DNA from: Psammoneis japonica
Lineage: Eukaryota
NCBI GenBank assembly: GCA_008632985.1
Contig: QPGO01000126.1
Coordinates: 62,050 to 126,000, forward strand
DNA: 63,951 nt
Reading direction: 5' to 3'
Shown here piece after piece: positions 1 to 57,286 of the stretch; positions within the stretch are counted from its first letter, which is position 1, and each line of letters opens with the position of its first letter. The notes beneath the pieces were generated by a model, which was given only the letters and a program-made list of their open reading frames with translations, ran no database searches and was not told where the DNA came from. The translations under genes were made by a program, and so were the position numbers.

Positions 1-22
1 CACACACACACACACACACACA
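1..22. repeat. (CA)n microsatellite, truncated by the window edge
   Basis: 11 CA units at the window start. Confidence 0.95.
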
Positions 23-530
23 CTGTCACCCTCCCCTGATGAGCAATGCAAAGCTCATCAAGAAAAAAAGAGCACCTCCAAAAGAAAAGAGAGGGCCAGA
101 ATGGCAGAACAAAGAAAAGGACCAAAGAAATGGCCAAGACTTGGCCATTGAACATGACAACAATCAACAACAATGTCCTGTCATCAGTCTTCAACAAAAA
201 ACATCAAAGGCACACAAATCTTTTGGACAAATTGAGTTCTGCATCAAAGAATCATTTCATCAATCCACAAATCATTGACTGCAATGGGACATTCTGGCAA
301 GTCATGCTGTCACCAAAACTCATCCCAAGAGATGGGGCCAAAAAATGGAATCCACCACAACGGATGATGCACGATGCACTGAAAATCAAGCAACAGGCAG
401 CAATCTGCACCTGACAAACTAGTGCTTCTGCTGCCAGTTGTGTCACCTCTGAGAAACACATTGGATGACCAAAATGCATTGTAAAGTTGTGCTCAATGTT
501 GGAAGAACAGTGATGTGTTGCAGGTGAGCA

Positions 531-2310
531 TCACACGGTGTTCAAATCATGGTCATCAAGTGAGATTTCTTGATTGAGGAAGGTTGAATTCTCAACAGCC
601 TCATGTGCTCCTCCTGGCCCTGAGCTGTGGGAATCCTTCCCCTGATCAAAATGTGTGGGGTCATTGTTGGGGATGGTTGACAGGTCGTCACGAGCACCAG
701 GAACAACGCTGCTCGACACCACAACAATGGTCTTGACAGCAAAGGAAAGAGGTGGTGTGGTGGGAGACAACAAGACTTGGGGGGCCTCTTTCAGGGTTGC
801 CCCACTTCCAAGCTAACTGGACAAACAGAGTGCAACACTTGGAGTGCCTCATTGTTGGAAGAAGGTTGACATTTGGTTGGCAGATTTTCAGTGACAAGCA
901 AATCTTGGTCACCAAACAATTCACCACTGGAAGAGTTGGAATGTTTGTCAATCTTGTGCACTTCCACTGCACCATGTTGCTCCCTCCCCTGATCAGAAAA
1001 TGAAGGATCATTGTCAGCAATGATGGATGGGTCCAGAGTGCCATGAAAAGTGCAGTTGGACGTGTGACAACAGCCCTGACTGTGGAGGAAAGAGACTGGG
1101 TGGCAGAAGGCAGCAAGACTCCATGGCCCTCTTTCACATGCTGACTGCCCTGCTGCTGTTGGTCTTGTTCAAACAAGAGAAGGAGCAGCAGCATTGCACA
1201 TCCAAAATCAATGATGGCCAAACCAAAAATCCAAATTTGAATCAAGTTGACAACCAACAAAGCACCGGTGGTGTCCATGAGTGACATGTGGTGGCAGCGC
1301 ACAGGTGGCAAGCAAGTTAGGTGCAACCTTGATGACAGAGGACAGTCCATGACTGGGGTGAACATGGCCATCTTTGCGCGGAACAACAGAATGACCAGAA
1401 ACAAAAAACTTTGCTGGGGTCTTGAGTGGGCAGGCATGGACTTCAGCAGGAAGTGCCGCTAATTTGGCAGGAAGTTTGAGGGGTCCAGCATCAACAACTG
1501 CAGGTGGCTCCCTCTCAGATGCCGTGACAGACACAGTGGACTTGCTGTGCAGTGAAACATCATCCACAGGATCCACCCCAGCATCGACAGCAAGTGCATC
1601 TTGAAAATGAGAATTTTCATTCTTCCCAGCAGTCTTGGCAGCAGGAGCCACATCTTGAACCTCCACAGATGCAACAGACACGACAGAGCCTCCAAGAGGA
1701 AGAATGCTCTTCAGCGCTTTGGCCACAGCTTGCTCGTGCTCTTTTGGACCAGGCAAATGAGTGGCTGAGGCCTTGGCAAGATCTTCGGGGGTGTGAAACC
1801 TGCAGCAAAAGCTGGAGATGAAAAACTTGGGGCAGAAGAGGATTTTGGGAGAGGATTTTGGGTGTGGAGCATCAGAGATGTCATCCCAACATTTGTGCGA
1901 ATCAAAGTCATGACAAAAACAGAGACAGAGTGTTTCAACATGTGCCGCTGTGGTGTCCTGACCATTTGAGATTGTCTTGATCACAGCCTTCTGAAGATTG
2001 GTGCAGTTCAGATGAACTGGAGAAGCTTCAGGGGCTGCTACAAAGAGAGGAGCCTTGTCCATGCAAGTGGTCCAATCCATTTGAGATCGTTGGTCAGCAC
2101 AGCTTTGGGAATGATGAGATCCTGAATGACCCTGTGATGGAGAGTTTCCACAGGATTGGTCTTGAGGCCTGGAGCAGGCATCTCATCTGAATGAAGGTCA
2201 TTCAGGTGACAATGGGCATCGGGCAAGTGATGTTGCCAGTTGAATTCAACCAATGTCGACTCTTGATCTTGGTCAAATCAACGGCAGTTGTGCACTTGTT
2301 GACCATGGCT
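531..2310 (-). pseudogene. Decayed gene of unknown function inside island A
   Basis: Protein-like minus-strand fragments in shifting frames (2038-2253, 1208-2080, 531-773) with no Tyr and excess His/Cys; no family recognised. Confidence 0.45.
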
Positions 2311-2749
2311 GCGTGGGGGAAAAATCAAATTCCTGCACAGAGTGCTGGCATGTGTTTTACAGTGGTCGTGATGATCACAAGTTGAGAGAGAAAAATGGCT
2401 GTGACAATGATGCTGTTTTCAACAGAGAAATGTTGCCAAATCACACCGCAGTGAAAGTTGAACTGCGGTTGCATTGAGGAAGACAAACAGCGCACTGTTG
2501 CTCATAACCGTACAGACTGCTGGTGTCGGGACGATCTAACGGATATCTACTAGAGGACAGATGGTAACCATGTACTCTAGCTACTAGAGAGGAGAAAGAA
2601 AGTGAGCAAAGAAGAGATCACATCATCGGATCTCTCCATGCCATCTGTGCTAGTCTGTTCGACACAAGGGAGTGTACTCCCCGTCTCGAATGTCTGTCAG
2701 TAAGTACAGTAGTAGGCCCTCTCCAGAGTTATTACACAATTGACTTAAT

Positions 2750-6299: not shown

Positions 6300-7270
6300 G
6301 GCTGAAGATGATGGACAAAAGTAGAACTATCTGTTTCCACAGGCCACTCTTGTTTTGTGAGTCACTCTGCACAACGCCAACAAAGTAAACACACTTTGTT
6401 GGTCGCGAGCAGAGCCGCAATAATTCAATCGCAGTCCTCCGAATCTGCTCGGGAGCCTCTGTGTTCTGTGTGGGCCGTCGGTGGCGCACTGATGAGTGAG
6501 CACGAGCACTGACTCGAAATCGCGGGTCGTGTCATCATGCTCGTCTCCAGAGTCACAGGCTCCGAAAATGACCATGACCACACCTGCCTGGGGCCACCCA
6601 AAATCATGGACATCACACTGTGATTTGTTTCTTCATCCAAAGCAGTTGTTGTTAAACTTGACACAGAAGCGAGCCATGCCATTGAGGGAGTGGAAAGAAT
6701 CGTCTTGTTCATTTCCATCCAGTCCTCAAGCCCACCACTTTTTTGGCCGGCCGAGCTCATCTTGTCTCCCGCTCTTCGCTGCATTTTGCCACCAGTGTTT
6801 GGCGAGCTGTGTCAAGCAAATGTTTGTGCATGTTTTCTCATCATTGCTTTTGTTTCAACAGAGCAATTGTTTTTCCATTCATTGCAAAGATGCCCCCCAC
6901 CCTTTTTCGCTTCTTGCAGCAAGAGCTCCCCCCAGCTGGCTGATGGAGTGCGACATCTTTCTTGCCGTCATCATGAAAGTTCGCAGTTTGCAGAACACCC
7001 TGATGATGTTTGGTGGCATTTGCACAAAATGTGGTCAGCAACCCCTGGGTCAAAAAGGCAAAAGCTGACATGACAACATGTTGTTTCTGGCTGTTGGCTT
7101 GCACATGTGTGCACTCAATGAGGTTTGTTGCACACCTTTGGTGTGTGGGCCCTCCTGGCTCAATGCAAAATGATGTTTGGTTTGTTCACCCATGACAATG
7201 TCCCAGCTTCATGGCTGCAATGTTGTCTGGGCTGGACACATTTGAGAGCAGCAGCTTTGATCTCAAACAA

Positions 7271-7301
<31 letters not shown>
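7271..7301. repeat. (CT)n microsatellite
   Basis: ctctctctctctctctctgtctctctctctc. Confidence 0.9.
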
Positions 7302-7303
<2 letters not shown>

Positions 7304-10300
7304 ACTGTTTTGAAGTTTGTGCTGCACCAGAGCAACGCGTTGAAAGGATGCTGTTGCTGAGGGCCCAGTTGGCTGCAGAAAAAATCAAAAAGCTCACTCA
7401 GTGCAATCCACGGATCAAGCCACAAAATGTGCTCAAAGCATGCTCTGGTGTTGGGAGCATGTGGGGTGACAACAAGCTGATCAGACAGTGAAGCACTCAA
7501 CAGACTTGTGAAAGTGCAAAGGTCCAGGATTTGCAACCCAACAAGCAAAAATGTTTGTAAAACAAGCCAGCAAGTTTGTGATCTGCTTTGCAAACAGGGG
7601 TTTGAAAACATGTTTGCTGATGCTGTGGCACTGTCAGAGTTCACCAACTGTTTGCAAACACTTTTGTGAACTGTGCAAGGTTTCTTCATTTTAAGCCATG
7701 CAAAGTCTGGCCATGCACCCAATGACAAATTCCCAGGAAACAGGAATTTTGATCACCAATGCATGGTTTGTTTCCGTGTGTCAGTTTTTTGCCATGTTTT
7801 GCTTCAGCCACTCACACTTTGCTGCATCTGCTGCTGACCTTGCTCTTGCTCAAATGAGTGCCAGCACTTCAGCTGCTGCCTCCACCCACAGAAATGGAAA
7901 GAGAAGAGGAAAAGGAACATTTGCTGTGTTGGGTGCCACCACTTGTGCCATGCACCACAATTTCTTTTGTTCTCTGTTGCACAAATTGGTGTTGCTGCTG
8001 CCAGCAGCCCAAGAAACAGCAGATGACATGCAGCAGCAGGCCACCAGCCCAAGTTGGAAGGCTGGCAGCAACTCTCCAGGCAAGTGCAGTTCAAGGTTGG
8101 CTCATTGGGCTTGAGCAAACAGGCCCTGGGAGAACCATCCAAGAATGGCTTTAAAACACACTCATGTTTGCAATGTTGATGGGTGTCCCAATCCATTCCT
8201 CAAGCAGCTCTCCAAGAATGAAGCAGCCACAGCTGGGTTGCAACAAAATTGCAGGATCATTTGAAACAGCGCTGTCACAAGGGGATGCTGAGTCCAAGCC
8301 TGTTCTTGAGAAGGCCAAGCAAAAAAGGTGAGATTGGGTGCACATTGTGTGTTGCATGTTGGCTTCAGTCATTGTTGCTGAACAGGCACTGGCAGCATCA
8401 TTTTGTCTTGCTCACAAGTGCTTCTGCTGTTTGTCATCTTTCACATTTTGGGAAGCACTTGCTTTCCAACACTTTGTTGGAGGCAGCAACAGTGGCAATG
8501 CAAAGCCACCAGCAAAAAGGTGAAACATTGCAATCAACCTTAAAGGGTTGGCTTGCTTTTGCTCCAAGGCAGAAGACCCTGACAAAGCAAGCCCGGTTCT
8601 GCACACACAGAAAGCAAAGGATTTCAAAAAGCACATGCACAGAAAAGTGCTTCATTGAAATGATTTTCAAGGTGGTGACTCAGATGCATCTGCAGTCACT
8701 TCCTGCTTGTTGGGACAGGAGCATGTCAGCTGAGGTGAAGTTTGCCATGTTTGAGAAATTTTTCAACCTTGTCTGGCAGCAGTGCCAGCACAGCAGCTGA
8801 AAAGAGTGACGGCATTGGGCATTTCCTGAAAGAGTGATTGAAGCAAAGAGCAGCAGCAGCAGCAGCAGCAGCAGCCAAGAGTGACAAGAAGAAAGCCAGC
8901 AGTGCCACTGGCAGCCCAGTTCCATCACAAAAACCACCACCACCCGCCGCCCAAAAAGTCAAACTTTGGGGACTTCAGTGGATGGCAGACAAACAGTCAC
9001 TGCCACGTCATGTCATTCGTTGTGAATTTAAAGTTGACAAGTTTGTCAATCTGGGAGGACTTTAATTGAAGCAGTCAAAGTCCACTGTGTGCTGTTGTTC
9101 TTTCCACTGGTGGAGATGAGTTTGCATGTCTTCTCAGCTGACCAGACCCCTCTGAGCAGAACCGCTGCCTCGCGGACTTTTTCACCCACGTCATCCCACC
9201 AAAAGGTGATGGATGAACAACCACCAATGACCAGAACACACAAAATGAACCCACCACATGCATCCCGGCTGCACGGGGGGTGTGAGACATCTTTTGGTCC
9301 AACTGCCCCTCTGATTGCCAACCCCCTGCCTTGGGCTTCTTAACGCCAATCAGAAAAACAGACACCACATGTGGTGTCAAAAAATTCTTGTTGTGGTCTG
9401 TAAAGTGCCTTGCGTGCACTAAATGACCACACAAATGAATTCATCCCACTCAAAAACACACATTTTCACCCTTTGTTTGTGTTCAAGTGATGTCTGGTTG
9501 TGCTGCAGTGGCCTTTGAAAGTGTGGTGTTTTTGCTCAAATTTCCCATGCAAACTGCCTCCAACATGGCGTCACCTCCAGCATCTCCCCTGTTGCCAGAA
9601 TGTTCCCTCCAATGATCCACCTCTCCCATGGACGTGCATGGAAAAGAGATGGGCATTAGCGAATTGCTTGCTGTTGGAGACAACATGCCTGAATCACCTG
9701 GTGCTTTTAGAGAAGAATTTCTGAAAATTTCAGGCAGTTCCGTTGGTGATGCAAATGAGGCCACAGTTGTCCTGCCACCAACTAAAAAGTCCAGGAATTG
9801 CTTTTCCCACACAAAGAAGAAGCTGCTGGGTGTTGTGATTCTCTTTGTGGAGACCCGGTGCCAAGAATTGTGTTCCAGCTTGCTGTTTGATGCAGTGCAA
9901 ACGGAAGATGCTGCACAGTGGTGGCATGTCCACGGAAAACCAACAACAACCAGTTTGCAGTGAAGTGGGGTCAGTCATCAATGTTTCCTGGAAGCATGCA
10001 AAAAGAACATTTGCACCACAAGCTTGAAAGTGACAACCAAACAAAAGAGCAGCTGAAGAAAGCAAGGCAGAGGAGAGAGTGCTAGTTTGAAATGAGCAAA
10101 TGCAATGCAATGGTGTTGCAGCAGTTTGTTGTTGAATCAATGTGATGAGAACCACTGCAGTTCCATGCTGATTTGAACAACACTTGTGCCTGCAAGTGGA
10201 TCATGTTGATGAATTTAACAATTGATCCATGCAGCAACAAGTGGTGTCAACATCAACAATGTGTTCCACCTCATGATTCTGGTTGCTCAGATTCTTCTTC

Positions 10301-11239
10301 TTCCTCCTCCCCGTTGCACCGCATGGAGCCATTCATTGCTCATTCCCATTCACAGCATCGCCTGAATTGCCATTCATTCCACCAATTGTGGCAGCAGCAG
10401 CACCAATCTCTTCATCATTTGCACTCTCCACACTGCTGTTTTTGACATGATGATTTGAGGAGGACAGCCCGTCATCTCACTCTGTTGCACACCACTGCTG
10501 CTTGCAGTGTTGTCACCTTGAGGAGGCATTGGATCACACCACAAGCAAATTTTCCATTGTCCCATGGCCAACTGCCACTCACCTTGTGCCTTGGCACATG
10601 AAATGGTCAGAGTTCATTTTTGGTTTTGTGTCAATTTTTGTTTTTCTTCACTCATGAGTTTCATTTCGACAACAATGGGGCAGCGCACTTTTCAAAAATC
10701 TGGTTCCTGCACTGATCTGCACAAATTGGACACATGTGGAATGTGCAGCAAATTTTGCAGCAATTGATTTGAATTCACTCCAAGTGCACAAACATTGTGG
10801 CAACAATGCCACGACATCAGCGATGGCCGCCGCACATGACAACAACAGCTGACGGGGGGTTCTGGCACAACGGGCTCCAGCCCCAGGTGGGACTTTTTTG
10901 TGACATTGGGCCCGCAGAATTCTGCATGCAAGCTCCACAGCAAAATTGTCAAGCAATGAACACATGGGTGATTGCCAACAGAAAAAGAGGCAATTTTGCA
11001 AACACATCTCCTCCTCCACACTTGAAGCACATTCTTTGCAGCATGCCCGGGTGTGTTCTTCAGACATTGAAGAACACACCCAGTGCATCTTTGTTTTGTC
11101 ACAAATGTGGTGGACAACAGAAAGCCTTTGGCTTTGCAAAACAGGCAGTGTGGAACAATTTTTTATGACAGAACACACAGAAAGGTGTGTGAGAAACATG
11201 CGGCAGATGACAAAAAACAATTGTCACAGTTTGGCAGTG

Positions 11240-11457
11240 CGAGGTCCCACCCAGAGCTGGAACGCATCACACCAAGATGACAACTGACATGACAACAAAT
11301 GCAGCAAAAATGTTGGATGACAATGATGGAGTTGTTTTGGGAGCTGCTTGAGTGATTGGTGATGGTTGATTTTTGACACGCACAACTTGGTGCTGAAAAC
11401 ACGTGCATTTTTTTGCCGCGGTGGGAGACGTGTTCTCCAGGTCCAGGTGGGACCTCG
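11240..11457. mobile_element. Tc1/mariner-like MITE (218 bp)
   Basis: 22-bp TIRs cgaggtcccacccagagctgga / tccaggtccaggtgggacctcg (3 mismatches); flanked by TG (11238-39) and TA (11458-59), consistent with a TA TSD whose left copy mutated; TA|CGAGG terminus is mariner-like. Confidence 0.75.
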
Positions 11458-12998
11458 TACAGAGGTGCACGCCATTGATGCGCACTTGGCTAATTTTTTC
11501 TATGAATGAAAAATGCACGTGGGCAGCAACAAGTTTGCTTTTTAGGGGACGCTGAAACAGGACACAAAACATCAGATTTGCAATTTGTCAATTTGAAAAT
11601 GGGTCACTCGGCCACAATGCCAACATGGCAAATGGAAACCTTGCTCAGGTCTTGTTTGTCAAGAAGTGGATTGACAGGATTCATCACAAATTTCTGATGG
11701 CGACTCCAAGGCACCACAAAAAAGATCCGCAATTTCGCCCCTTGCTTCAGGTGCAATTCACGCTTCAAAGTTCTCATCTTCTCTGCTGCAGCACCATGCT
11801 GGTGGGATGTTGTTGCCTGAATTGCATCGCAGCCATCTTCAACCCAAAAGATCACATCAATCAAAGGCTCACTTTCATTCCTCGAGCAAAGCATGTGTTG
11901 TTTGGCTTGGTCTTTTCGGACATGCTCACTCATGTTTGACACTCTGACTGTGGTCCGTTTTGCTCCAAGCGCAATCCCACCGACAACTGGCTGGCAGTTC
12001 TTCTTCTCATTCTTTGTTGTGTTTGGTGGCTTTTTGTTTTTGCTCTTGCGGACTTGATCTTTCACAAAGTGAGCCGGGCCCATCGAAAACTTCAGACAAA
12101 GATGCGACTTGAAAAGATTTCCTGGTTGCCAGCGTTGTCTTTGTCAAGAACTTCATGCCAAGACATCCTGAGGTGCTTCTCAGCAAGAAGCTCTTCTGCA
12201 TGATCTGATTTCAGGGTTGTCTTGAATCTCTCCATGTCTTGATCATGTGGGACGATGCCGACAAGCACACTCGATGGCGCACTCTTGCTAAAAGCGAGCT
12301 GGTGCCTGCCCTCTGCAAGTTCTTTGACTGCACTTGCATCAAGGTTTGGGGCCGTTTCCATGGCCGCATTGAACTTTGTCTTGTTGAACATCGCAACATC
12401 GCGAAAAGAACCTCCCACGATCCTCAATCAACGTGATGTTTCATCATCACAGAGAGTTTTCAGCTTGACAAGGTGTTTCTTGGCCACAAGCAGTTGACAT
12501 CCAGTCCAAAGACAACCGCAAACCAATGCACCCGGTTTGGGAGGGGGTCCAAATTCCAAAAAGCTCATTCCATCGGATGATGCCCAGTCTTTGGTGAAGT
12601 TGTTTCCACCCCAATGTTGGCTGTCGTCAGAGGCCGCCATGATGAATCTAACACCACGAAGCTCACTGGCATCTCCACATGATCCAAAGTGGTCTCCTGG
12701 GTCCACAATGCAGGGTGCACCTTGCCTCTTCAAACTGGGAATTTTGCTTCTTTTCTCAGTGTTGGGCATGCAGCAAACCGCTGCATTCACATCCTTGACC
12801 TCCTTGTTCTCCAAGACTGGAACAAATTTGTAAAAAACATCAACCAACCCAGAGGACCTTCGGATGGTGTGCACGACGGGTTCTTCATGATCCATGATGA
12901 GTTGCTGCAACAAATGAAGTGCAGTTGTGGTCTTTCTAATTCCAGTTTTCCCGACACCACACACTTTGTGTCCCTTTGACCCTTCAACCACCGGACTT

Positions 12999-13028
12999 GA
13001 GCAAATCTCCACGGGTGGAGATTTGTTC
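12999..13028. repeat. 30-bp near-perfect palindrome (copy 1)
   Basis: gagcaaatctccacgggtggagatttgttc. Confidence 0.9.
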
Positions 13029-13284
13029 CCTCATGTCACAAATGTGGCGAAACAAGCAATTTCAGACATGCACAACATTTTGTTCGCGCGATTTTGTTTT
13101 GGAACGCGCATTCGCCAAAAATCTGGGGGAACCCTTTTTGTAATTTAGAAAGTTCAATGTCAACTTTTAACACCGGGCTTTTTGCAAGCTTCATCTGTGG
13201 ACAGAGAGGAACTAAATCTCAACCCACAACAATGCAGGTTGTCATGAATTGCTGTCACAAATGGAGCAATTGTGCCACACCCTT

Positions 13285-13316
13285 GGAGCAAATCTCCACC
13301 GGTGGAGATTTGCTCC
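13285..13316. repeat. 32-bp perfect palindrome (copy 2)
   Basis: ggagcaaatctccacc|ggtggagatttgctcc. Confidence 0.95.
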
Positions 13317-16300
13317 CAACACAAGCAAATGCATGTGGCACACTTTACGCAGATTCTACGCTGTATGACATTTTTATGCTGTGTGCATTGTGCCATCATA
13401 AAAGTGCATGGAATGGTTCCAAAATGCTTCATCCTCAGGGCACACAACAACTTTAATCAGACGGCCAGGGCTCTGAAGTTCGGGAACATGGTCTTGGCAC
13501 ATTTTCACATCCGTCTCTCCGATTTGCACTGGCCATGAATGCAGAACTGCACTGCGAATTTCAATCGCTGCTGCAAGGTTGGGCATTTCGACATCGCCTT
13601 CTGTGGGGACTTTCTTGGCCTTGCGTCTCCACGCATCCTTGTAAATTTCGAACAAACTGACCAAAATGGAGTGCACCTGTCCCAAATGAATCGATGGACT
13701 TAGTTGCAAAAACTCCAAACCCTTGAGGACAGTGCAGATGGATGCAGTGTCGGCGAAGGGTTCCAACCACAACAATGCGGGCCGCAACCTCTTCAAAATC
13801 TCTTTGTCAGTCACACCCTCTGCAGTTGCAGAAGTCTTGAGAGAGACCAGTGTTGCAGTGTCTCCTGTGGCATCCACTGCTGCATCCATTGCATCAGGTT
13901 CTCTGGTTTGGCTTTCTTCTTTGCATCCATCATCTTGTTGCATTGTCAAGCACCAAGCACAAGGGAGAGCAATTTATGAACGGAAGTTGCCGTGTGCCGG
14001 CACTGCTCAGCGTTCAGGAGATTGGAGGTCCAAGCAGATGCAGACAGTTTTACATTGCGTGGAAATCTACGCAATGATTGCTTGGTGCATTTCAACGTAA
14101 TTTCTCGCGCAACCTCCGACCTCTGTGAAGAGCTCAGACATCCATGATGACTTTGGCATCACACTTGCAAATCACAAGAAGCACCAATCATGCTGTTTGT
14201 TTTGGATTTGAGCATTGTCATGACAACACCAATGCTGGCATTGACAAGCTTCTTGCAGAGACATTCCACCATGCTTCCCAAAGGCTGGATCTTGCAGATG
14301 AGTTGCTCAACTCTCCATGGCATTCTCTGACTGTGCTGCTGCACTTGGAGTTTCATGATCTGTTGGGATGGAGAGGAGGACAAAACTTGCATTGTGCATG
14401 CAATGGCAACAAGGTTGGGCCATCTGCAGTGGGGCAAACCCCTTTCCTGCTGGTGTCAAGGTCATGGATTGAGCAAGGAGCCTTGCAAAGTGACCCAGTT
14501 CTTGTGGAAAATGTTTGCATGAGCTGCACAAGATTGTGGCACCCCCCTGGTGAAAGATGTGCCCAAGATCAAACCTCAAGTTGACATTGATGATGCTGGC
14601 ATTGCATCTGACCAAGGATTGCTCAAGTCAGTCACCTGCATGAATCACCCATTGAAATTGTGTCAAACATGGCCAACAGCACTCATCATCAGGGCGCAGA
14701 CTCTGGGCTGGCATGTGGAGCAGATTCTTTGAGCTGGAGGCAGCTCCAGACAACACCAGAATTCTCATGTGACAATGGCTCAGTGTGCAAGACACTGCAT
14801 GGTGTTTGGGCCTCTTGCCAAGAGAATGATGCACAATTGTTTGCAAAGTTGCGCCCTTGCAATTGTTGATGCCAACAAAGTGACAAAGGGCCCTCACCTC
14901 CCGCGCAAGGAAGTGGAAGCAGCTGAGCTGTCTGGCAGATGGCAAGATGTGCCATGACTGAGCCACTCTTGAGCTCCAGCACAGATTGACACTGAGAAGA
15001 TTTTTTCTGCTCTTTTGGCAAGAATGATCCCAACAAGAAGAAGTGGGTTGCTTCTGTGTTGGACCTTTGCATCATTTGCGTGCTCTGTGGCCCTGAGTTG
15101 GCACAAGCGAGCAGTGGCAGATGCAAAGGTGGAGTGCATCAAGAAGCTCCGCATGTCACTTCACAAGTGTGAGCACAACCAGAAAAAAGCAGAGTCAAAG
15201 AAGTGAGAGGCTGTCATGGCTCTGAATGTGCTGGGGTGCTGGGGAGTGCATTAAATGAGAAGAAACCCAAAGTGGAGTGAGAAGGGCAATGGCCAGTGTT
15301 GTGCATGAGCCTCCCTTGGAGGAGCGTCATGTGGGCAAGTGAAGCAAGACTTGTTTGCATTGTTTGGTGGCACTTGCAGCAAGATTCTGTCATCAGATGA
15401 AGAAGAAAGGTTTGGGTTCTGCATGAAAAGAAGACTCCTTGCCGAAGGAAGATGCGCTGCAAGCTGAGAAAGAATTTGTCCAAGGTCCTCTCAAGAGCTG
15501 GCGCCAACATGTTGTGCCATGGCACAAGGAGTTGTGCCCTGGTGACTCAAAGCTGCCATTCACACCTGACACCATTGCTGACTTGATGCCCCTCAATGTT
15601 GAAGTCTTGAACAAAAACTTGGAAAACAACTGCAAGGGTCAAAAGTGCTTTTGGGTTTCCCCCATTGATGGCACCAAGCTGCTCCTGCAAACAACTCGGT
15701 GATCTCAGTGCTGAGAGCCATGCTGAGTGAGTCAACACAAAGCTGATGTTGACAGAGGGCAACAACTGCCTTCTCAACAACAAAGTTGGAATGCTTCTTT
15801 CTTTGAACATGAATGAGCAGCTCATGCTGTGCACACACGCTGCACTCGCGAAGTGCTCGAGGAGGCATGCATTGCGGCCATTGCTTTTTTGAATGACAAA
15901 AAGGCAACCTTGAGTGAGCAACTGGCCAGAGAATGAGTCTGTGGTCAAAGCACAATTTCTTGTTGTGAGCACATCTCTGAGTGACCCAAATTCCCAAAAT
16001 TTTTGCCTGCGGCACTTTCATCCTGTGGCGCTGGTGATGCAAAGGGCACTTCTTTGTGAGTGGCTCATGAGCCATTCTGAAAGAAGTTCATGAGCTCTTT
16101 TGAGAGTTTGCAAACCTCCAGTTTGTTTGTCTCTCCTTGTTGAGCTGAAGTTTGTAAACTGTTTGTTTGGAAAAATTGGTGAATTGAAGCCCTTGCAAAG
16201 GTTCCTTTTGGTGAAGCTGAAGTTTGCAGAGATGACGTGGCAGCAGAGGGGCGAGGCAGGACCGAGAGTGTGCCAAACCCCGCACCATGCACGCATCGCC

Positions 16301-16987
16301 CCAAGCAAGATCCACTGGCACTGCATTCTGAAACACACATGGACCATTGAAAGATCCAATGGGCACCCCCAGCGAGCACCAGTTTCCGTTTTTCGTCGAT
16401 CCGCAGAATGTTGCTCGAAAGACCAGTTGCCAGATGCAGCAGCAGATGGCAAAACAGCGCAACAACTGTGTTCTCCACATCCATTCCCCTCGCTCAAAAC
16501 AAAACCCAAAGTCCAATTTTAAGTGCTGCTGCGCTTCCACCCTGCAACTCCGGCAACAAGCTGACCCACACTCCCAGTGCACCAGGTGCGGCAGGAGCAC
16601 ATGACCCTGCTTGTTGTTTGCGAGCTCGAATTTGCACAGACATGCTCCAGAGCGCATCTGTGCATTCACGTAGATTTTGTGCCAGTCGCATCGTAGAGGG
16701 ATGTTGTTCGCCTGCACCAACGAACTCTTTCTCGTACACAAAATATCACCCACGCCTGCCGGATGGGTTGGAGGCACATTTTCCTGGCACACACACGTAG
16801 AATTTAACGCAGCTGCACAGATGGTCTCTGGAGACCATCTGTGCAGGCGACAGTGCAAGCAGGGATGACAATTGTCCAAGATCGGCATCACCCTCGGGTG
16901 ATGCCGTGCCAAACTAGCTTGCGATGGTGCGCGTTCCCCTTGTTCAGAATCATCCTGCAACAAAAAGAGTGACAGCGCACACTCAAC

Positions 16988-18148: not shown

Positions 18149-21100
18149 ATGGCAGATTTTTTTGCGGATGACGAGCAAGATGGATGGGGCGATGATGATC
18201 TTGATGGGCTAGATGATCTCGATGATTTTGAATTGAACGAAGAAAAAACTCCAGGGAAAAAGAACGAGGAAGAACCTCCACTTGTTGCGAACACTGCAGT
18301 AAAGTCTCGAGAGGAGGAGGAAACGAAATCCTCATTATTTTCCTCAGCTGTAGCAGCAATGTCGCCAGAAACTGATGCTTGGGGAGACGATGATCTCGAT
18401 GGGCTTGATGATCTCGATGATGTTGAAAAGCCAGGAATAGACTCGGAACCGGTACCGGAACCGGATGAGAAAGAAATAATGTGCATGGATGAAGCTAATG
18501 ACGAACGACTTGAATCCGCCAAAAGTCGAAGATCGAGACAGGAAGACTCGACAACGAAACGCTACAGTCATCTGAACCTGAAGGAGGCATTCTAAACACA
18601 GAAACGGAGGACTGGGGTGAACATGATCTCGATGGGCTTGATGACATAGTAATTGACGAAACCACACAAAAAGACTCAGCGACAATAGAGACGGTTCAGC
18701 CTCAGGAGCAAAAAATGTGAACGGATCTGGCGAGCAGCAAGTTGAATCCGAAAATGCATCAAAGATCGAAACAGAAAGACCCGACACCGAGTCTCCAAAC
18801 TTGTCTGGCGAACCAGAAAGAAACATACTACAGGCAGAAAAGGAGGCATGGGGAGACGACGACCTCGCCGGTCTAGATGATCTCGATACGACTACTGAAA
18901 TGTCAGAGAGCAGCCCACTAGCAACAGAGACAGTGACTCATCAGGAAGAAACGCAAATGAATGGAACAGACGAACAGTTTGAACGACTCGAAAACGAGGT
19001 AGAGAAGGCATCGTCAGCAAACCTCGATTCAGCTGAACATGAAGCAGCGATAACGTCAGAAACGGAGTCATGGGGTGAAGATGATCTAGCGGGTCTGGAT
19101 GATCTCGATACGGCTGCTGAAATGCCAGAAAACAGCCCCGAAACAAATGAGTCGGTTCTGCCTCATGAACAAATGCTGACGAACGGAGCAGACGAACAGA
19201 TTGAACGACTCGAAAACGAGGTAGAGAAGCCATCGTTAGCAAGCATTCTATCGGCTGAACCTGAAGCAGCCATATCTGTGGAGATGGAAGCTTGGGGTGA
19301 CGACGACTTAGCGGGTCTGGATGATCTCGATGCTATGAATATGTCAGAAAGCAGCCCTCTGGTAGCGGACACAGCTACTCGTCAGGAAGAAACGCCGGTG
19401 ACTGGAGCAGATGAACAGTTTGAACGACTCGAAAACGAGGTAGAGAAGGCATCGTCAGCAAATTTCGTGTCAGCTGAACCTGAAGCAGCGGTATCGTCAG
19501 AAACGGAGGCATGGGGTGAAGATGACCTAGCGGGTCTGAATGATCTCGATACGACTACTGAAACGCCAGAAAACGACCCCGAAACAACTGAGTCAGTTCT
19601 GCCTCAGGAAGAAAAGCTAGCGAACGGAGGAGGTGAACAGATTCAACAACTCGAAAATGAGGAAGAGAAGCCATCGTCAGCAAACATTCTGTCAGCTGAA
19701 CCTGAAGCAGCCATATCTTCGGAGATGGAAGCTTGGGGTGACGACGACCTAGCGGGTCTGGATGATCTCGATGCTATGAAAATGTCAGAAAATGACCCCG
19801 TATCTTTTCCTCGGGAAGAGAAGCTAATGAATGGAGGTGACGAACAACTTGATATACCGGTCAAGGAGACACTGAGAGCATCGGCTGAATCCGAAGCTGC
19901 GATATCGCCAGAAACTGATGCTTGGAGTGACGACGACCTAGCGGGTCTGAATGATCTAGATACCAGTGATATGTCAAGAATTCCTCGTCATTCTGAAAAG
20001 CGAATGAATGGGTGCGAACAAGTTGGAAGCCTGGACAACGAAGCATCGAATGCAGCAGACGGAAATCTCTCGTCGACTAAACCTGAAGCAGCGATATCGT
20101 CAGAAACGGGGGCTTGGGGCGACGACGACCTATCTGGGCTGGATGATCTCGATGCTACTGAACGGTCAGAGAACGACCCAAAAACAACGGAACCGGTACC
20201 ACTTATTGAAGAGAAGCTTGTAAATGGACCTTCTCCTGACGAATACCCTTTATCCGCCAACAAATCGAAGGCCAAAATAGAAATGCGTGAAGAGGAGGCA
20301 CTACAGCCATCAGCAGCAAACCTCGCTACTGAACCTGACGCCGCCACACAGTCTGAAACGGAGGTCTGGGGTGAAGACGACCTCGAGGGGCTTGATGATC
20401 TCAATGCTACATACGTCGCAGAGCCAGTTCCGATAGTCACGGATGAATCTGTTTCTCTTGAGAAGGAAATGCTGAATGGGACCACTGATAGCAAGCAACA
20501 TGAATACACAGCGACGTCAACTTCAGAAACGTTCCAGGAGCATCAGGGGGAATTGATAGAAGCAGCAATTCCCTCCGCTGAACCTCAAGCAATCCTGCAG
20601 TCAGAAACACAAGGTTGGGGTGATGATGAACTTGATTATCTCAATGATATGGATGATTCTTTTCGAAGTGACACAACAGCAACGCCTCCAGAAAAGGAAA
20701 TACTTGAACCGGAGGAGCAGCCTGAATCCACATTCGCGCCGGAAACAGAGAAGCCGCACGAGGAGCTAGAAACATATGCAAGAAAAAACTCCTCGCCGAA
20801 CTCTGATGTCGCTATCACAGAAGATTGGGGTGATGATCTCGACGGTATCGATGATCTCGACGATATTGTCGTGTCCGAAGAAGATCCCATAACGACTGAA
20901 GAATCGCCTGCTAAGAACGAAATGACTTTAGCGTCAACGGAAAGAGCAGAAAACTGTCAAGAGGAGAAACTCGCATCACTTGCCGCCTCAGCTGAACCTA
21001 AACCCGCATCAACTTTGCTGTCGGACGCAGGAAATTGGGAAGATGATGACGTTTTCGACTCGTCTGAATCTGAACAAGATCAAATCATGGCAGCCGACAA

Positions 21101-24100
21101 GCAAGTTACGGTTGAGCAAGACGAATGTAATGTAGTTTCTCCCGATGATCAAGTCGCATGTGTTTTTCCGCCAATCGCAGAAGCAGAAAAGCTTTCCGAG
21201 AGGGAATTACTTCCACCAAAAATAAGTGTCCTCGATGGCAGTGTCTCAGAGGATCGGGGAGACAATGGGCGTGATATTCTCGATGAAGATCATCTTCAAA
21301 ACGACACGGCAACAAGGGGCGAAGTCGCGTCAAGGGAAAAATGGCAGAGTCACCAGGAAGAGGAGGAGGGGGCACCAGTTCCTGTCTCAGTTGAACCTAA
21401 ACCCAAACCAGCTTTGCTGTCGGATGGAGAAAATTGGGGTGGGATCGATGATCTGGGTGGTGATGACTCGTCCGAAAAGGGTCAAATCATAACGCCGGAC
21501 ACAAAAGCTACCGTCGAGGAAGGCGAGCTCGAGTGCGATTTTCCGCCACAGCCAGCTGCAGAAACGCCCGGGCACACAGAAACGGAAGCAGCACCGCCAA
21601 AAATCAATTATCCCATTGAAGCAGCTTGTTCATCAGAAAATGAAGATTGGGACGATGCTCTTGATAGCATTGACGACATCAGAGCTTTAGGTTCGTCCGA
21701 AGAAGCCCCGACAGAAACAGAGCAGCAGCTTGCATTCATGGAGGAAGGGATCGTTGCTAGTTCTGACGGGAGTCCTTATAGAGTTGTCGCTACAACTGAT
21801 GAAGACACAGGCGAGGTGTATATGACGCCCAAAAATTCGACCGCGGAGTCTGTGCGTGATATAGCACTGGAAGTACACTCTGAAATATCTGCAGCCGCTG
21901 AAGGCACCCCATGCGAGTGCACTCGCCTTTCCCGAGAAGGAAGCAGGGAACACTTTACTTGTCCATGCATTTCAAAATACATCCTAGAGACGAAAAGCAC
22001 TAAAGTGGTCCCGGTTGACGAAGTGGACTACCCAAAGCTATTAAGGGATGAAATTGCCAAACGCATGCTGCTAGAGGAGGAACTAAAGGCTTGCTACAGT
22101 ATAATCGATTCTTACACGCAAAAGGAAACTACCGACGAGACCGATACAGAAGATGCGCCATCGCAGCAGGTAGGAGAGGATACGTTGGAGGAAGATTCTC
22201 GGCTCACGAAAGAAGAGAAGCAACGAGAACGCTCAACTGAATTAGTTAACACGTCTCTGAATGTGCTGAGAGGAGTCGGAGCATCCAAGGATAACCTTAT
22301 TTCTGAAAGACACCAAAACGTGTCGGAAGTTGAGGAGTTGAATGAGACTGTTGAACAGCTGTCGTCTGACTTTTCAAGCTGCATGGAGCAACTTGCGTGC
22401 AAACACGAAGAACAAGCTGTGTCATTGACTAGGGCAAAGAGCGACGTTCGACGGCAGGTTCAAGAAAGGATGGCGGTGGCTCGTATGTATCATGAGGTAT
22501 TGCAAGCCATGGCGCAGCGGGTGTCTCGTTCCGACGAAGAGCTTCATTTGCTACGTGACGGACTCACAGATTCAAATGCAGCTGAGCTCGAGACTCTGCA
22601 AGACTTGTGTCGGCAGTATGAAAACCTGTTGATGGCACCGCGCAGAGCTTTTGAGAAGGCCAACGAATTATATCACAGTGTTGACGCCTTGTCAGTAGAG
22701 TTGTCTCAAGAAATGGACGTACGTGAGAGTCGGAACGAAGCGAAGCTTGGGTCAATCATGGAAGAACGAGATGAACTTGGACGACAGCTGGCTAAACGAT
22801 ACACCTTGGCCCGGACCCATGACCAACTTTTACGATCCATGGCATTGCAGGTGTCATATCGCGATGACGAGCTGCGGACGTTACGGGCGGAACAAGGTAG
22901 CTCTTCCGAGCTCGTACAAGAGATTCTAGAGGACATAAAGCGTCTGGCAGAACAACAAGACACTCTGAGCGAGACGCAGAAGCGGGCGTTGGAGAAATGC
23001 ATTACGCTGGAGCAAAATGTAGATAATATTTCGACAGACTTTTCACAGCATTCATATCTCGGCAACGACAAGCTGATGGCCTTGGAAAAAGAACGCGATA
23101 CGTTGCGGTCGCAACTTCTTGCAAACTTCTCTATTGCCCACAGACAGCACGAGCTACTCGAGGCCGTTGTGCATCAAGTCTCTTGTCGCGACGATGAATT
23201 GATGTCTTTGCGGTCGCGTCAAAAGAATGATCATGGCCAGGTGACTCGGACGCTGGAAGAGCTGAAGAACCTGGCTGAAGAGAGTCGTGCTATGATGGAT
23301 GTGCAACAACAGGGCTTAAACAAGTTTGGTGAATTGGATGAGTTCGTAGATAAGGTGACTCAAGAATCACATGTGTTGGAGGATCAGTATGAAGAGAGGC
23401 TTTTGGTACTTGAACAAGAACGGAACGAGCTGCAACTGCAACTCAAACAGAGATTCGCTCTAGCCCAAAAACACCATTATATAATACAGTCGCTGACTAC
23501 AAGGCTAAATGACGAACCCGAGCAAGAATTGCAGTCATCGGAGGACAACGATATCGCAGTGGATGAGTTTCTCGGACGAGCACTAGAAGACATGAGATCG
23601 ATTAGTCAGAAAGCAAGCGAAATCTTATCGAAGCGGCGTCGAGCAGAAGTCACTGAAATAGAAGTACAGCTTGAAGAGCTGGTATCGGACGTCATGCATC
23701 AGATACGGGAGTTGACATTTGATCTCACGTTAGCGACTTCAGAAAGGGATCAACTCAGGGTGCAACTCTTGCAGATGATGGCAGCGGCAGAGACGCATCA
23801 TCGCATGTTAACTTCCCTGGCCTCCCAGATCCAGCAACGGGATGAAGAGTTGCTATCCTATTCATCTTTGCAAAAGGGAGCTCGCCATGCCATTTTGTCA
23901 GCCATTGAGGGCATGAAATGTGCTGGGCAAGAGAAGGCATCCTTCCTGTCGGAAAATCATCTAACGGCAGAGAAGGTAGATGCTATGAGCAAAGAGGTTG
24001 ATCTTCTCACATCAGATTTTTCCACTGATACTTTGAAGATGAAACAGATGTACGAAGAAAGGATTGAAGATCTCTTGAGGGAACGTCATGATCTTCAAAT

Positions 24101-25531
24101 GAGACTGGCCCAAAGGCTAGAGATATCCCAAGTGCAACATCGCCTGCTGCAGTCAATGGCGTCACTGGTGACTCCCGAGGATAGCGAATCGTCGTCGCAG
24201 ACGAAGGAACTACATGCTCTTATCACACGAGCTATGGATACTGTGGCGCATGTCGAACAAGAGAAAGCCGCGGTTGTCGATGGTCATAGCGAGGCTATGG
24301 CGCGACTCGGCAATCTCAACGAGCACGTAGACCACCTGGCGTCGGACTTGACAGCGCAAACACAGAACTGGTTGATAACTATGAAGCAAAGCTTGAATTA
24401 ATTAGAAGCGACAGGGATGATTTACGGTGGAAGGTTTCCCAACGAGATGATATTATACAGAAGAGCCATCTACTCGTTCAGTCCATGGCGTCACGCTTGT
24501 CGCAATGCGAAGAGCAGTTGCAATCTCAGCAAAATCAAATGGGCAACGACTCGACAAGTGCGCTCGAAGAGATGACGAACCTTAGAAGCGAGACTTCCTC
24601 TCTTTTCTCTGTACATTGTCAGGCTATGACAAAGGTCTGCAAACTGGAAGAGCTGATGCATCAGCTGGAGTCTGATGTTTCGAAACAAGCCTCCTCTGCC
24701 AGTAGCCACTGCCACGAAAGACTAGACACGCTTATCAGGGAGCGACATGAATTGCAAGTACAGTTCTCTCGATCAATTTCAGTTGCTCGATCGCAACATC
24801 AATTGCTGCAGTCCCTGGCGTCGAGCATATCAGCCAAAGACGAAGAATTGGAATCGGCTCGTTCGCGTGAGCAAGACGCAATCAATGAAGGCGCCAAGCA
24901 TCTACGCAAATGCTTGAGTCTCGAAGAGGAACTTGGTGCGACGCGTCAGGATCAAAACTCTCTCATGGTGGAAATACGACAGCGCGAAGAAAAAGAAATC
25001 GAACTTCGGACTAACTTAGATTTGTGTAAGCAAGAGCGAGATGCGATAGTCTCAACGAAGGCACAGCTCGAGAATGGCAACGAGGAACTGATGGCGCAGA
25101 TTGTAGAACTGGAACAGGAAATTGAATCACGAGACGCAGAGGCTGTTTCGCTTCATGCGCATATCGAAAGTCTTCAGGAAAAGGCAGTAGCCGGTAGAAA
25201 TCTCAATTCAGTGGTTGAACACCCCGAAAGCGTGCCGGTCGAGCAGAGTAATGGTACACACGAGCAGGTTGAACATCTAGAGAGCTGGCAACAAGACATT
25301 TCTCAGGTGGGCGACAGCTTTGAGCTCGACCTGGCCTTGACCGATGCGTTTGCGTTGGAAGACCCGGACGAAAAGGTTGTGGCCTTGGCGAATGCGCTTC
25401 AACGGTCCGAGCTGTCTCGGGCGGCAGCCATTGACAAGCTGCGCAAAGAACGTTCGGCGAATGCGGATAGTATCCGCCGTCTGGGCGAATCCATGAAGCG
25501 CTTCTATGCTACGCTTAGCGCAAACTCGTAG
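18149..25531 (+). CDS. Giant (about 2450 aa) acidic-repeat plus coiled-coil protein, golgin/tether-like
   Basis: ORFs 18149-18595, 18717-24401 and 24485-25531 are joined by coding-looking bridges (ETEDWGEHDLDGLDD; NYEAKLELIRSDRDDL) across apparent small frameshifts; about 15 WG(D/E)DDL.GLDDLD motifs, then long helical repeats. Confidence 0.8.
18840..19960 (+). repeat. Coding tandem repeat, about 220-bp unit with about 441-bp alternating higher-order structure
   Basis: WG(D/E)DDLAGL codons recur at about 18848, 19070, 19293, 19512, 19734; gaacgactcgaaaacgaggtagagaag recurs. Confidence 0.85.
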
Positions 25532-27084: not shown

Positions 27085-28502
27085 ATGAAGCTCGCTATCG
27101 CCGCCCTCTTCATTGCTTCGGCTTCTGCCTTTTCCTCCAATGGCATCAACCGAATCGCCAACAATGGTGTTTCGGTTGCCGGACCTGCCTTTGCTCCTTC
27201 GATTCGTCTTGCCCAAACGTGAGTTGATGTGTAATGACCGCATGCAGGGAACAAAATATCTATCGTTGAATCTTTCTATGAAAAAGCGTTCTCTTGTGCG
27301 TAATGTTGCTTTTTCTGACACTATTATTTTCTTTTAAAATCTACAGTCAGCTTGCTGCCGCCAAGCAAACTCCTCACGGTGGAGAGCTCGTTGATCTCAT
27401 GATCAAGGACGACGAAGCCAAGGAGGCTGCCATTGCCAAGTGCACCGCTGAACTTCAGCTTACTCCCCGTCAACTCTGTGATGTGGAACTCATTATGAAT
27501 GGCGGATTCTCTCCTCTTGATGGATTTATGGACGAAGCTACGTACAAGCACGTTGTGGAAAACATGGAGCTTCCCAGTGGACTCATTTTCGGTCTCCCCG
27601 TTGTGTTTGACACCGACTCGGAGGACTTGCAGCCTGGTATGACTGTCCTTCTCAAGGATGGCGATCGCCCCATTGCTACTGTTGAGTTTACGGACAAGTA
27701 CACTCCTGATAAGCCGCTTGAATGCCTCAAGTGCTACGGTACTTCAGAGATTGAACACCCTGGTGCTCTCATGGTTGCCACCGAACGCGGAAAGTACTAC
27801 ATGGGAGGAAAGGTTACCGGTCTCAACTTTCCCGTTCGTGACTTTCCTTGCAAGACTCCTGCCGAAGTTCGTGAAACCCTTCCCGATGACACGGATGTTG
27901 TTGCCTTTCAGTGCCGTAACCCCGTCCACAGGGCACACTACGAGCTCTTTACTCGTGCCCTGGACGATCCTCTTGTTGGCGAAAATGGTGTCGTCTTGGT
28001 GCACCCCACTTGCGGTCCTACTCAGGCTGATGATATTCCAGGAACCGTTCGTTACAAGACCTACGAGGTTCTCAAGGAGGAAACCCACAATGATCGCACT
28101 CGTTGGGAGTACTTGCCCTACTCCATGCACATGGCCGGACCCCGTGAGGCCATTCAACACATGATGATCCGTAAGAACTTTGGATGCACCCACTTTATCA
28201 TTGGACGCGACATGGCCGGATCCAAGTCGTCCGTTACGGGCGAAGACTTTTACGGTGCCTACGACGCCCAAGACATGGCCAAGAAAATGGCCGACAAGCT
28301 CGGTGTCACACCCGTGCCAAGTTTGAACCTTGTGTACACTGAAGAGGAGGGATATGTCACTGCCGACGAAGCAAAGGAGAAGGAATTGCATGAGAAGAAA
28401 TTGTCTGGAACCAAGTTCCGTCAAATGCTTCGCAGTGGAGACGACATTCCCGAATGGTTCGCCTTCAAGAGTGTGGTTGAGGTCTTGAGAGAAAACATCT
28501 AA
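27085..28502 (+). CDS. sat: Plastid-targeted ATP sulfurylase (sulfate adenylyltransferase), 2 exons (27085-27218, 27347-28502)
   Basis: MKLAIAALFIASASAF bipartite signal; GT-AG intron 27219-27346 keeps frame; AFQCRNPVHRAH, MHMAGPREA, HFIIGRDMAG motifs. Confidence 0.97.
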
Positions 28503-35148: not shown

Positions 35149-35529
35149 GGTGAGCCTGATGCCAATGAACTCAAATTCAAAATGAGCTTTTCTAGCTATC
35201 CAGTCACCCAGCCACGCACGTTGCAACCGCTACTCAATGTTTACAGAGCGCAATTTGGAATTTTGCCGCCACTTCACACACACGACCCATCGCGGCGGGT
35301 CGGAAAATTTCAAAGGCATTATGACCATGTTTTTCTTCCAAATTGTCTAATTAAAATATTAATTTAAATACTTACATTTATCTATTTGTCTCATACCACA
35401 AGCTTCAACGGAAAGCATTTTTGTCTTACGAGCGATGTGCAGACCACCTACCGGTACGCACGCCTCGCGAGCGCGCCGTGCAAGCGACAACCCCCCAAAA
35501 AGATGGCCAAAAGACTCTACTGGCATGAT

Positions 35530-37833: not shown

Positions 37834-38157
37834 GGTCAAACGAACGGCATGTTGTTTGCGTTGAATGATGCAATGTGAATGAAACGGGAATCTGAATGCG
37901 TTATCGCCAAACGGAGTCGGTGCGTTGGCATCATACTGACTTCTACATACGTTTACTCCTACTTCAGTCATGGTACTAAACGCTTAACGGTTAAATCGGT
38001 ATGTTTGATCCATTCGACTAGAAACCCGGTGGTTGAAGCAAGACGTCCTCGCGATCGCACATCTATCGCTCGCGTCGCACAACGTTGCATTTTGCCGCTT
38101 GCGTAGATTTTGTACTAGGGCCTACGCTCTACGCATGCACAACAACCCGAACGCACC

Positions 38158-57026: not shown

Positions 57027-57286
57027 GGCCTGTTCCAGCTCCAGGTGCTCCGCGCGGGTTCGATTCCCATCATTTGGAAATTTGTGCATTCAGCGCAATT
57101 GACTTTTTCCAAATCCGTTTTTTGCCAAATCGAAGGGTGAGTGTGCACTTTACATGTGTTTTCGGGTGTACACTCACCTTTCGATTTTCGAAAAGATCAA
57201 AACTGAAGGAGTTAATTGCGCCAAACTGCGCAGAAAATCGGCCTCTCGCGTGATGAAAAGCAGAGCACCTGGAGCTGGAACAGGCC
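57027..57286. mobile_element. MITE (260 bp) with perfect 24-bp TIRs
   Basis: ggcctgttccagctccaggtgctc (57027-57050) / gagcacctggagctggaacaggcc (57263-57286); TTGT on both flanks; GGCC terminus resembles PIF/Harbinger. Confidence 0.8.

Follow-up and report, generated by a model that had tools for sequence, protein, structure and literature searches.

What has removed nearly all TA dinucleotides from five blocks of a diatom chromosome that share the base composition of the DNA around them? The question arises from a 63,951-nucleotide stretch of Psammoneis japonica DNA (assembly GCA_008632985.1, contig QPGO01000126.1, positions 62,050 to 126,000 of the forward strand), to which we refer as the window and whose own numbering is used throughout. 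We delimited the five blocks, here called islands, from a 500-bp dinucleotide profile; together they cover 18,960 bp and leave 44,991 bp outside (length ratio 0.421). They are silent stretches of the chromosome, bearing repeats and a pseudogene, in which two separate transition processes ran nearly to completion, namely CG to TG/CA and TA to TG/CA. The second of these is probably a process of its own, separate from CG decay, that changes TA into TG or CA on each strand individually and at a rate that depends on the 3' base.

Island A (positions 1-2480) is depleted of TA and CG and rich in TG and CA: it holds 7 TA in 2480 bp, has a CG observed/expected ratio of 0.09-0.33, and ends at a sharp right edge near 2490-2505. 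Island B (6473-16585) is a 10-kb block depleted of both TA and CG, with 43 TA in 10.1 kb, which comprise 25 YTAR, 8 RTAR, 8 YTAY and 2 RTAY when classed by their flanking purines (R) and pyrimidines (Y). Island C (35560-36300) is a short depleted block with 4 TA, 3 of them YTAR, and with an observed/expected ratio of 0.13 for both TA and CG at 35501-36000. Island D (42048-43609), likewise depleted of TA and CG, has 4 TA (3 RTAR, 1 YTAY and 0 YTAR) and includes a TA-free stretch at 42117-43244, and island E (56811-60874) is TA-depleted with 15 TA (8 YTAR, 2 RTAR, 3 YTAY and 2 RTAY).

Across the islands, the observed/expected ratio was 0.06 for TA and 0.31 for CG (0.55 and 1.00 outside, respectively), while TG and CA both stood at 1.73 (1.19 and 1.16 outside, respectively). 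AA was at 1.25 in the islands and 1.14 outside, and GA was at 0.98 in the islands. The four base frequencies were equal to within 0.001 inside and outside, with a guanine plus cytosine (GC) content of 0.485 vs 0.486. By arithmetic on the counts, the islands have gained about 1,316 TG and CA and lost about 613 TA and 779 CG. Since the gain of TG and CA about equals the loss of TA plus CG, with the base composition unaltered, the simplest reading is that TA and CG were changed into TG/CA by transitions and that the islands are not of foreign composition. TA-free stretches of at least 250 bp numbered 29, where 0.2 were expected at the outside density, and all of them lay within islands or at an island edge. 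TA contexts at the island margins were ordinary, with no half-way contexts there, and the edges of the islands are therefore sharp.

The two losses can be told apart. CG survivors showed no flank effect, and at most a weak dipyrimidine effect (NCGN class ratios of 0.10-0.15; RCGY 0.150 vs YCGR 0.116; p = 0.06); loss without flank preference is the ordinary signature of methylated CpG decay, which would account for it. At two edges, TA depletion extends a few hundred bases past CG depletion. In island E, the shortage of CG weakens from about 60.4 kb onwards, whereas TA stays depleted up to about 60.9 kb, and the 200-bp profile at 60800-60999 has 1 TA and 23 CG. Because the TA-depleted domain reaches beyond the CG-depleted domain, we regard TA loss as a process apart from CG decay.

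The 73 TAs left in the islands were strongly biased in their flanks. YTAR was the best retained class (40 in islands and 276 outside; in/out ratio 0.145), followed by RTAR (15 and 445; 0.034) and YTAY (14 and 434; 0.032), and finally RTAY (4 and 473; 0.008). This bias was confirmed as real and far above chance, whether measured against all outside DNA (chi-square p = 6.8e-17), outside DNA not in long open reading frames (ORFs; p = 5.7e-10), the flanks of TG and CA within the islands (p = 5.8e-10), or a uniform expectation (p = 2.1e-8). It persisted in the island cores after 300-bp margins were trimmed (35 YTAR, 10 RTAR, 13 YTAY and 3 RTAY), and a YTAR excess was present in islands A, B, C and E separately. 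An earlier note on this DNA had predicted the depletion order RTAY > RTAR = YTAY > YTAR, and this is the order of the NTAN counts of islands vs outside. The seven island A survivors that it listed were all verified (CTAG at 420, GTAA at 482, CTAA at 814, TTAG at 1318, CTAA at 1460, CTAC at 2039 and TTAC at 2358), none being RTAY, although island A by itself is uninformative, as seven sites without RTAY have a chance probability of about 0.13 (0.75^7). Survivors at 6.5-12 kb were mostly YTAR (15 out of 20), and the TA cluster at 59757-59791 was entirely so (CTAG at 59759, TTAA at 59765, CTAA at 59769 and CTAG at 59788), both as the note had described.

We modelled each TA as two half-sites, one per strand, with survival obtained by multiplying two factors, each governed by the base that follows the A on its strand (position +1), and fitted this model by Poisson to the 16 NTAN tetramers. 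With A, G, C and T at +1, the survival factors were 0.79, 0.42, 0.18 and 0.084, and the cumulative hazards were about 0.24, 0.9, 1.7 and 2.5, respectively. This four-base model fitted the 16 tetramers (deviance 8.9 on 12 degrees of freedom, p = 0.71) and did so better than a context-free model (p = 2.4e-15) or one that distinguishes only purines from pyrimidines (p = 0.0005). The class survivals of 0.02, 0.08, 0.08 and 0.34 correspond to pY^2, pY*pR, pY*pR and pR^2 with pY = 0.14 and pR = 0.58, in agreement with the proposal that RTAY is struck from both strands and RTAR and YTAY from one; the depletion order thus arises from two independent hits, one per strand. A pyrimidine at +2 speeds the loss further, as TAYY keeps 3 of 994 half-sites (relative value 0.007) and TAAA keeps 37 of 220 (0.40). 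The claim that YTAR is hit from neither strand had to be given up: YTAR is slowed rather than spared, with 66% of the expected sites gone on the all-outside baseline and 81% on the non-ORF baseline, and the TAR rate is about one third of the TAY rate. The purine/pyrimidine rule itself was right in form and too coarse, since the effect is graded T > C > G > A at +1 and reaches +2. The counts support a TAY preference that is graded, not on/off.

The per-strand TAY rule also specifies products. It expects RCAR from RTAR and YTGY from YTAY, a single class seen on two strands, with RTGR and YCAY as the alternative products. The ratio of the former to the latter was 1293:925 in the islands (1.40), 1905:1630 outside (1.17) and 542:470 in non-ORF outside DNA (1.15), so that the islands were skewed relative to both (Fisher p = 0.001 and p = 0.013, respectively). 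After the CG-derived share was subtracted, the TA-derived gain was 272-299 on the RCAR/YTGY side and 20-38 on the other side. YTGY and RCAR were near-balanced in islands B-D.

The direction of change could be read directly in a frameshifted pseudogene of island E (59835-60880, minus strand, with the frame change at about 60596), which belongs to a conserved diatom protein family of unassigned function. A library of 1.84 billion representatives yielded 26 homologues of its ORF at 59832-60650 (minus strand), and the best of them (P0121, 376 aa) covered 59835-60880 in a tblastn search at 81-85% identity. About 20% of the residues were altered, and the changes relative to P0121 were led by Tyr>Cys (9), Val>Ala (5, three of them GTA>GCA), Arg>Cys (3) and Arg>His (3); the even split of the Arg codons is in line with flank-free CpG decay. 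We took the majority of five close relatives (P0121, P0147, P0148, P0155 and P0126) as the ancestor and focused on Tyr, the one codon where either outcome alters the protein and which can hence be counted without bias. Of 13 ancestral Tyr codons, nine are now TGY, one is CAY and three are kept. Those preceded by a pyrimidine (YTAY, where the sense strand alone is favoured) gave 8 Cys, 0 His and 2 kept codons, and those preceded by a purine (RTAY, where both strands are favoured) gave one of each. All 8 changed YTAY codons therefore became TGY (binomial p = 0.004), an outcome that the per-strand TAY rule predicts and a flank-blind eraser does not. The three kept codons mean that survivors in the pseudogene are original TAs.

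Both strands of the pseudogene were affected. On the sense strand, 11 replacement events are A>G and 6 are T>C, and their occurrence side by side within 1 kb speaks against one-strand RNA editing. In the 5' part (60596-60880), none of the 3 Arg CGN codons has changed, whereas Cys has taken the place of Tyr at 2 of the 4 ancestral Tyr positions, which again separates TA loss from CG loss as two processes. Differences from P0121 that have nothing to do with TA or CG affect about 29 of 349 codons, whereas 10 of the 13 Tyr codons are changed, and a rough estimate from these figures would make TA about 40-60 times more mutable than the average site in the pseudogene. Changes were found at 8 of 8 TAT and 2 of 5 TAC codons (p = 0.035), or at 5 of 5 and 2 of 5 without codons followed by G (p = 0.08), so that a stronger attack on TAT than on TAC is suggestive only. 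Another family member among the database hits (P0128, 246 aa) has hardly any Tyr (0.4%) and much Cys (5.7%) and His. All five conserved Tyr columns are occupied by Cys (4) or His (1), and three conserved Arg columns by Cys. This protein resembles a further hypermutated copy, in which case the same process would have acted at another locus or in another genome. A metagenome scan with P0121 returned distant relatives only (L001 at 43% and L002 at 57%), too far for base-level polarisation, and tblastn of 23 window ORFs against the islands detected no mutated duplicates of neighbouring genes. With the survivors, the products and the polarised pseudogene in agreement, the earlier proposal of 5'-TAY as the preferred target on either strand is borne out.

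We estimated copy number from the summed contig depth of one public accurate-read run, counting copies at 85% likeness or more and taking unique genes at a depth of about 60. Contigs from these reads matched the window with 0-6 differences per 0.3-5.4 kb, islands included, which speaks for a genuine island sequence and rules out a base-calling artefact. Island A had contig depths of 550-1775, as for a repeat family of about 10-30 copies. In island B and just past its right end, the depth reached 38,858 at 10673-11339, 4,029 at 12674-13340 and 3,100 at 16009-16675, and short segments within 10890-11260 were at 50,000-110,000, which suggests that the repeat at 10890-11260 is present in the order of a thousand copies. 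At sites of that repeat where the window reads CA or TG, CG is present in most other copies. Repetition is thus 10- to more than 600-fold in island A and in parts of island B. Island B looks like a nest of repeats, and the islands are, at least in part, decayed repeats, a link to repeats being seen for part of island B. We found no repeats shared between islands by self-BLAST, by word matching after purine/pyrimidine recoding, or by transition-tolerant alignment (best score 52.5 vs a null maximum of 48).

The window and the other copies differed at 223 places, 178 of which are transitions. Among the 40 differences that were listed, with polarity assumed, many have TG or CA in the window where other copies have CG or TA. 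Two listed sites (1012-3 and 11232-3) show TG vs CA, as expected if one palindromic ancestor was resolved two ways. At 10967-10968, nearly every other copy reads AA and the window reads GG; on the complementary strand this is CC vs TT, a double change of the classic ultraviolet type. One contig at single-copy depth joins 11033 to 16494 with four other letters between, so that the 5.46 kb in question (11034-16493) are missing either from another allele or from a sister copy; the junctions showed neither a terminal inverted repeat nor a target duplication. The piece of island B at 13.0-13.45 kb is partly depleted and younger-looking, and it holds two copies of a near-perfect 32-nt palindrome (12999-13030 and 13286-13317) with arms of about 14 nt and a CGG/CCGG centre. 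Their position in the piece of about 4,000 depth suggests a high-copy hairpin element, for example a small inverted-repeat transposon. A (CA)11 microsatellite lies at 1-22, on the margin of island A.

Which mechanism would produce this pattern? Under the per-strand process that we consider probable, both strands of the same DNA would be struck, each independently. The A of 5'-TA-3' would become G with a chance set by the 3' base (T > C > G > A) and raised by a pyrimidine at +2, so that RTAY would offer two favoured sides for loss, RTAR and YTAY would offer one, and YTAR would disappear slowly. The agent would be an enzyme acting on DNA in place and aimed at silenced chromatin; an enzyme on DNA is suggested by the 40-60-fold rate, the sharply bounded domains, the strand symmetry and the two-base 3' context, and to our knowledge no spontaneous chemistry gives such TA mutability. 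As to the chemistry, we put forward tentatively that adenine in 5'-TA-3' of transiently opened duplex would be deaminated to hypoxanthine and be read as G at the next replication. That about 90-98% of all TAs are gone speaks against a requirement for a particular fold at the target A. With somewhat greater reserve, we raise the possibility of a diatom genome-defence mutator with no known counterpart, changing A:T to G:C at TpA on either strand of chromosomal DNA in silenced chromatin that bears repeats, and fastest at 5'-TAYY, which would most simply be a natural DNA adenine deaminase. Full-text searches, which mostly did not cover subscription journals, found no literature on TA-free islands, TA- and CG-free islands or TpA-directed hypermutation in diatoms or elsewhere.

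The base attacked, A or T, cannot be read from the sequence because an A hit in TAY equals a T hit in RTA on duplex DNA. Owing to this equivalence, the survivor, model, product and pseudogene counts would fit equally well with a thymine-modifying enzyme, such as a TET/JBP-type oxidase, that acts on 5'-RTA-3' and yields 5-hydroxymethyl- or 5-formyl-uracil, which mispairs with G to give T>C. Base J and the hydroxymethyluracil of dinoflagellates are found preferentially at T before A, and 5-substituted uracils mispair with G. Nothing in the window favours attack on T over adenine deamination, and we consider thymine attack unlikely.

Several points weigh against the per-strand process. The numbers are small (73 survivors and 10 changed Tyr codons), and island D has no YTAR excess (0 of its 4 survivors are YTAR). 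The remainder of the window stands in as a proxy for what the islands were composed of ancestrally, and the trinucleotide balance is poor: the gain of ACA/TGT is too small for the ATA/TAT lost and that of GCA/TGC is too large, and since the balance fails to close, the ancestral composition is only roughly known. In island B, about 6-10 kb and 13.3-16 kb are at single-copy depth for copies of at least 85% likeness, a level below which old mutated copies could fall. Four of the listed differences have TA in the other copies and the disfavoured product in the window, if the multi-copy state is ancestral: GTAG vs GTGG at 10738 and TTAT vs TCAT at 13032 in island B, and TTAC vs TCAC at 16667 and 16747 just outside it. 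Finally, a flank-blind erasure of TA followed by regrowth, with C>T changes at pyrimidine-C-A (YCA>YTA, as in ultraviolet- or APOBEC-like mutation), predicts YTAR, YTAY, RTAR and RTAY in proportions of about 50:24:26:0% from the island counts of YCAR, YTGR, YCAY and RTGR, and the observed proportions are 55:19:21:5%.

Regrown TAs would land in YTAN on one strand and in NTAR on the other, and with a predicted split close to the observed one, survivors alone cannot prove flank-dependent loss. Regrowth would also suit the three TCA vs TTA differences between the window and its copies (13032, 16667 and 16747), the tandem GG vs AA at 10967-8, which resembles CC>TT, and the +2 effect, as sparing of TAAA above all is what C>T in pyrimidine runs would give. 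The decision falls to the products and the pseudogene. Regrowth predicts equal amounts of TG and CA from the mixed classes, whereas the gain on the two sides was 272-299 vs 20-38, and it predicts Cys and His at 1:1 at Tyr codons, whereas YTAY gave 8:0. The pseudogene survivors include three original Tyr codons, the dipyrimidine effect at CG survivors is at most weak (RCGY vs YCGR, as above), and the four classes are fitted less well (chi-square of about 5.8 on 2 degrees of freedom vs about 0.05 for the per-strand model). Regrowth would still require a TA-specific eraser, and we hold this scenario to be improbable.

A further alternative makes TA loss a by-product of frequent T:G repair after methyl-CpG deamination, in which an error-prone polymerase of the eta type inserts G opposite T at TA, so that TA>TG/CA changes would accumulate throughout the methylated domain and for one patch length past it. 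The coincidence of TA depletion with CG depletion, overshooting it by a few hundred bases at two edges, is what such repair would produce. The hotspot of polymerase eta is W-A (W being A or T), with A>G, and its spectra include many transversions. AA is undepleted in the islands (1.25 vs 1.14 outside) even though W-A covers AA, and more than 90% of the TA changes at Tyr codons were transitions (10), the single Tyr>Phe transversion being seen against P0121 only. Aberrant repair by human thymine glycosylase is specific to TpG and weak or absent at TpA (PMC4041421). We therefore find a repair by-product quite improbable. Least probable is that the islands hold no mutation record at all: inherited or selected composition (foreign DNA or UpA/CpG avoidance, RNA viruses being known to avoid CpG and UpA) or a base-calling artefact (modified bases can give systematic errors in some long-read assemblies) is already largely refuted by the accurate-read contigs, which agree almost letter for letter through the islands, and by the pseudogene, which displays the changes directly against its relatives, while the base composition is the same as in the flanks, the TG/CA gain equals the TA plus CG loss, and depletion to 0.06 far exceeds any selected avoidance known to us.

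The window is diatom nuclear DNA, as judged by the domains of its long ORFs and the best matches of its ATP sulfurylase. Among 17 long ORFs that were scanned, which are intron-free, we detected protein kinases, an amiloride-sensitive channel, MYND, CUE and the diatom domain DUF6824, and none of the 17 contained a deaminase domain. The ATP sulfurylase (27294-28502) had best matches at 82-91% identity, with diatom transcriptome or genome proteins among them. Island C sits between two paralogous protein kinase genes (33790-35226 and 36385-37971, both on the minus strand), which share 66% DNA identity across 750 bp. An ORF at 46027-47778 (minus strand) encodes the adenylation and OB domains of an NAD-dependent (bacterial-type) DNA ligase in this diatom nuclear setting. 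Another ORF, at 18717-24401 (plus strand, 1894 aa), had no Pfam family and carries a run of diverged tandem repeats of about 220 bp (65-88% identity; 18179-20409); a strong skew of A over T and G over C runs along the whole stretch of 18-26 kb.

Two places in the islands stand out against a low three-base periodicity, namely the pseudogene and positions 900-2250 of island A. The latter is a coding relic on the minus strand with strong periodicity (score up to 12.6) and an ORF at 1208-2080, for which a homologue search returned 1329 candidates, none significant, and which had no Pfam family. Repeats so treated escape domain searches: none of the 34 island ORFs, and none of the six frames of 6473-16585 with stops read as X, contained a Pfam family. 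DNA free of TA has no TAA or TAG on either strand, which gives rise to long false ORFs in annotation. If the proposed process is true, it would erase the codons for Tyr, Ile (ATA), Leu (TTA/CTA) and Val (GTA) together with TAA and TAG stops, and repeats would escape homology searches. The order T > C > G > A at +1, the effect of a pyrimidine at +2 and the independence of the strands together provide a concrete fingerprint for testing candidate enzymes.

How does this process compare with known systems? The CG>TG/CA half of the island signature lacks flank bias, like methyl-CpG decay. For human thymine glycosylase, PMC4041421 describes context-specific T>C changes by a repair enzyme at TpG (making CpG) and hardly at TpA. 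Repair of that kind cannot account for the loss of TA. With ADAR hyper-editing, which affects double-stranded RNA and transcripts of retroelements, the islands share clustered A>G changes and a preferred 5' U. ADAR favours G at +1, and its preference for the 5' neighbour is U>A>C>G, with A at -1 tolerated. In the islands, by contrast, G at +1 slows the change (0.42 vs 0.08-0.18 for T and C), AA, CA and GA are untouched, and both strands of a 1-kb pseudogene that is not a retroelement were changed.

The earlier note had also drawn a likeness to TadA-type deaminases, and it holds for the 5' T. TadA and ADAT enzymes carry out A-to-I editing of tRNA and mRNA and gave rise to the adenine base editors used in laboratories. 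Like them, the process is strict for T (U) 5' of the A, since TA alone is depleted (TA 0.06, AA 1.25, CA 1.73 and GA 0.98); the outcome is A>G and C is tolerated at +1. The core motif of TadA is UACG in an RNA hairpin loop, and Tyr-to-Cys (UAC>UIC) is a recoding expected at UACG, as stated in PMC11472039. In the islands, however, every TAN is struck, TAT at least as hard as TAC, and G is not preferred at +2, as TACG survives better (0.07) than TACC and TACT (0.01 each). Moreover, both DNA strands are struck here, near saturation. The versions of TadA known to us to act on DNA are laboratory-evolved (PMC10442228). The analogy with TadA is weak. If an enzyme is responsible, it would be the first natural activity known to us to convert A:T into G:C in chromosomal DNA within a short, defined context, something that only laboratory evolution of TadA has provided so far.

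The system closest in logic, and opposite in chemistry, is by analogy the repeat-induced point mutation (RIP) of fungi. Both would involve transition hypermutation of both strands, specific to a dinucleotide, in sharply bounded repeat-bearing domains with some spill to neighbours, and both destroy genes (here, the pseudogene). RIP changes CpA to TpA and yields DNA that is TA-rich and GC-poor. In the islands, TpA is destroyed instead, A:T becomes G:C, CA and TG are gained, the GC content is unchanged, and the direction is given by Tyr>Cys. The enzymes of diatoms include DNMT4, a relative of RID, which is a factor of RIP (PMC9998398). If true, the process proposed here would be a mirror image of RIP, and genome defence of the RIP type would have been invented a second time, outside fungi and with the opposite chemistry.

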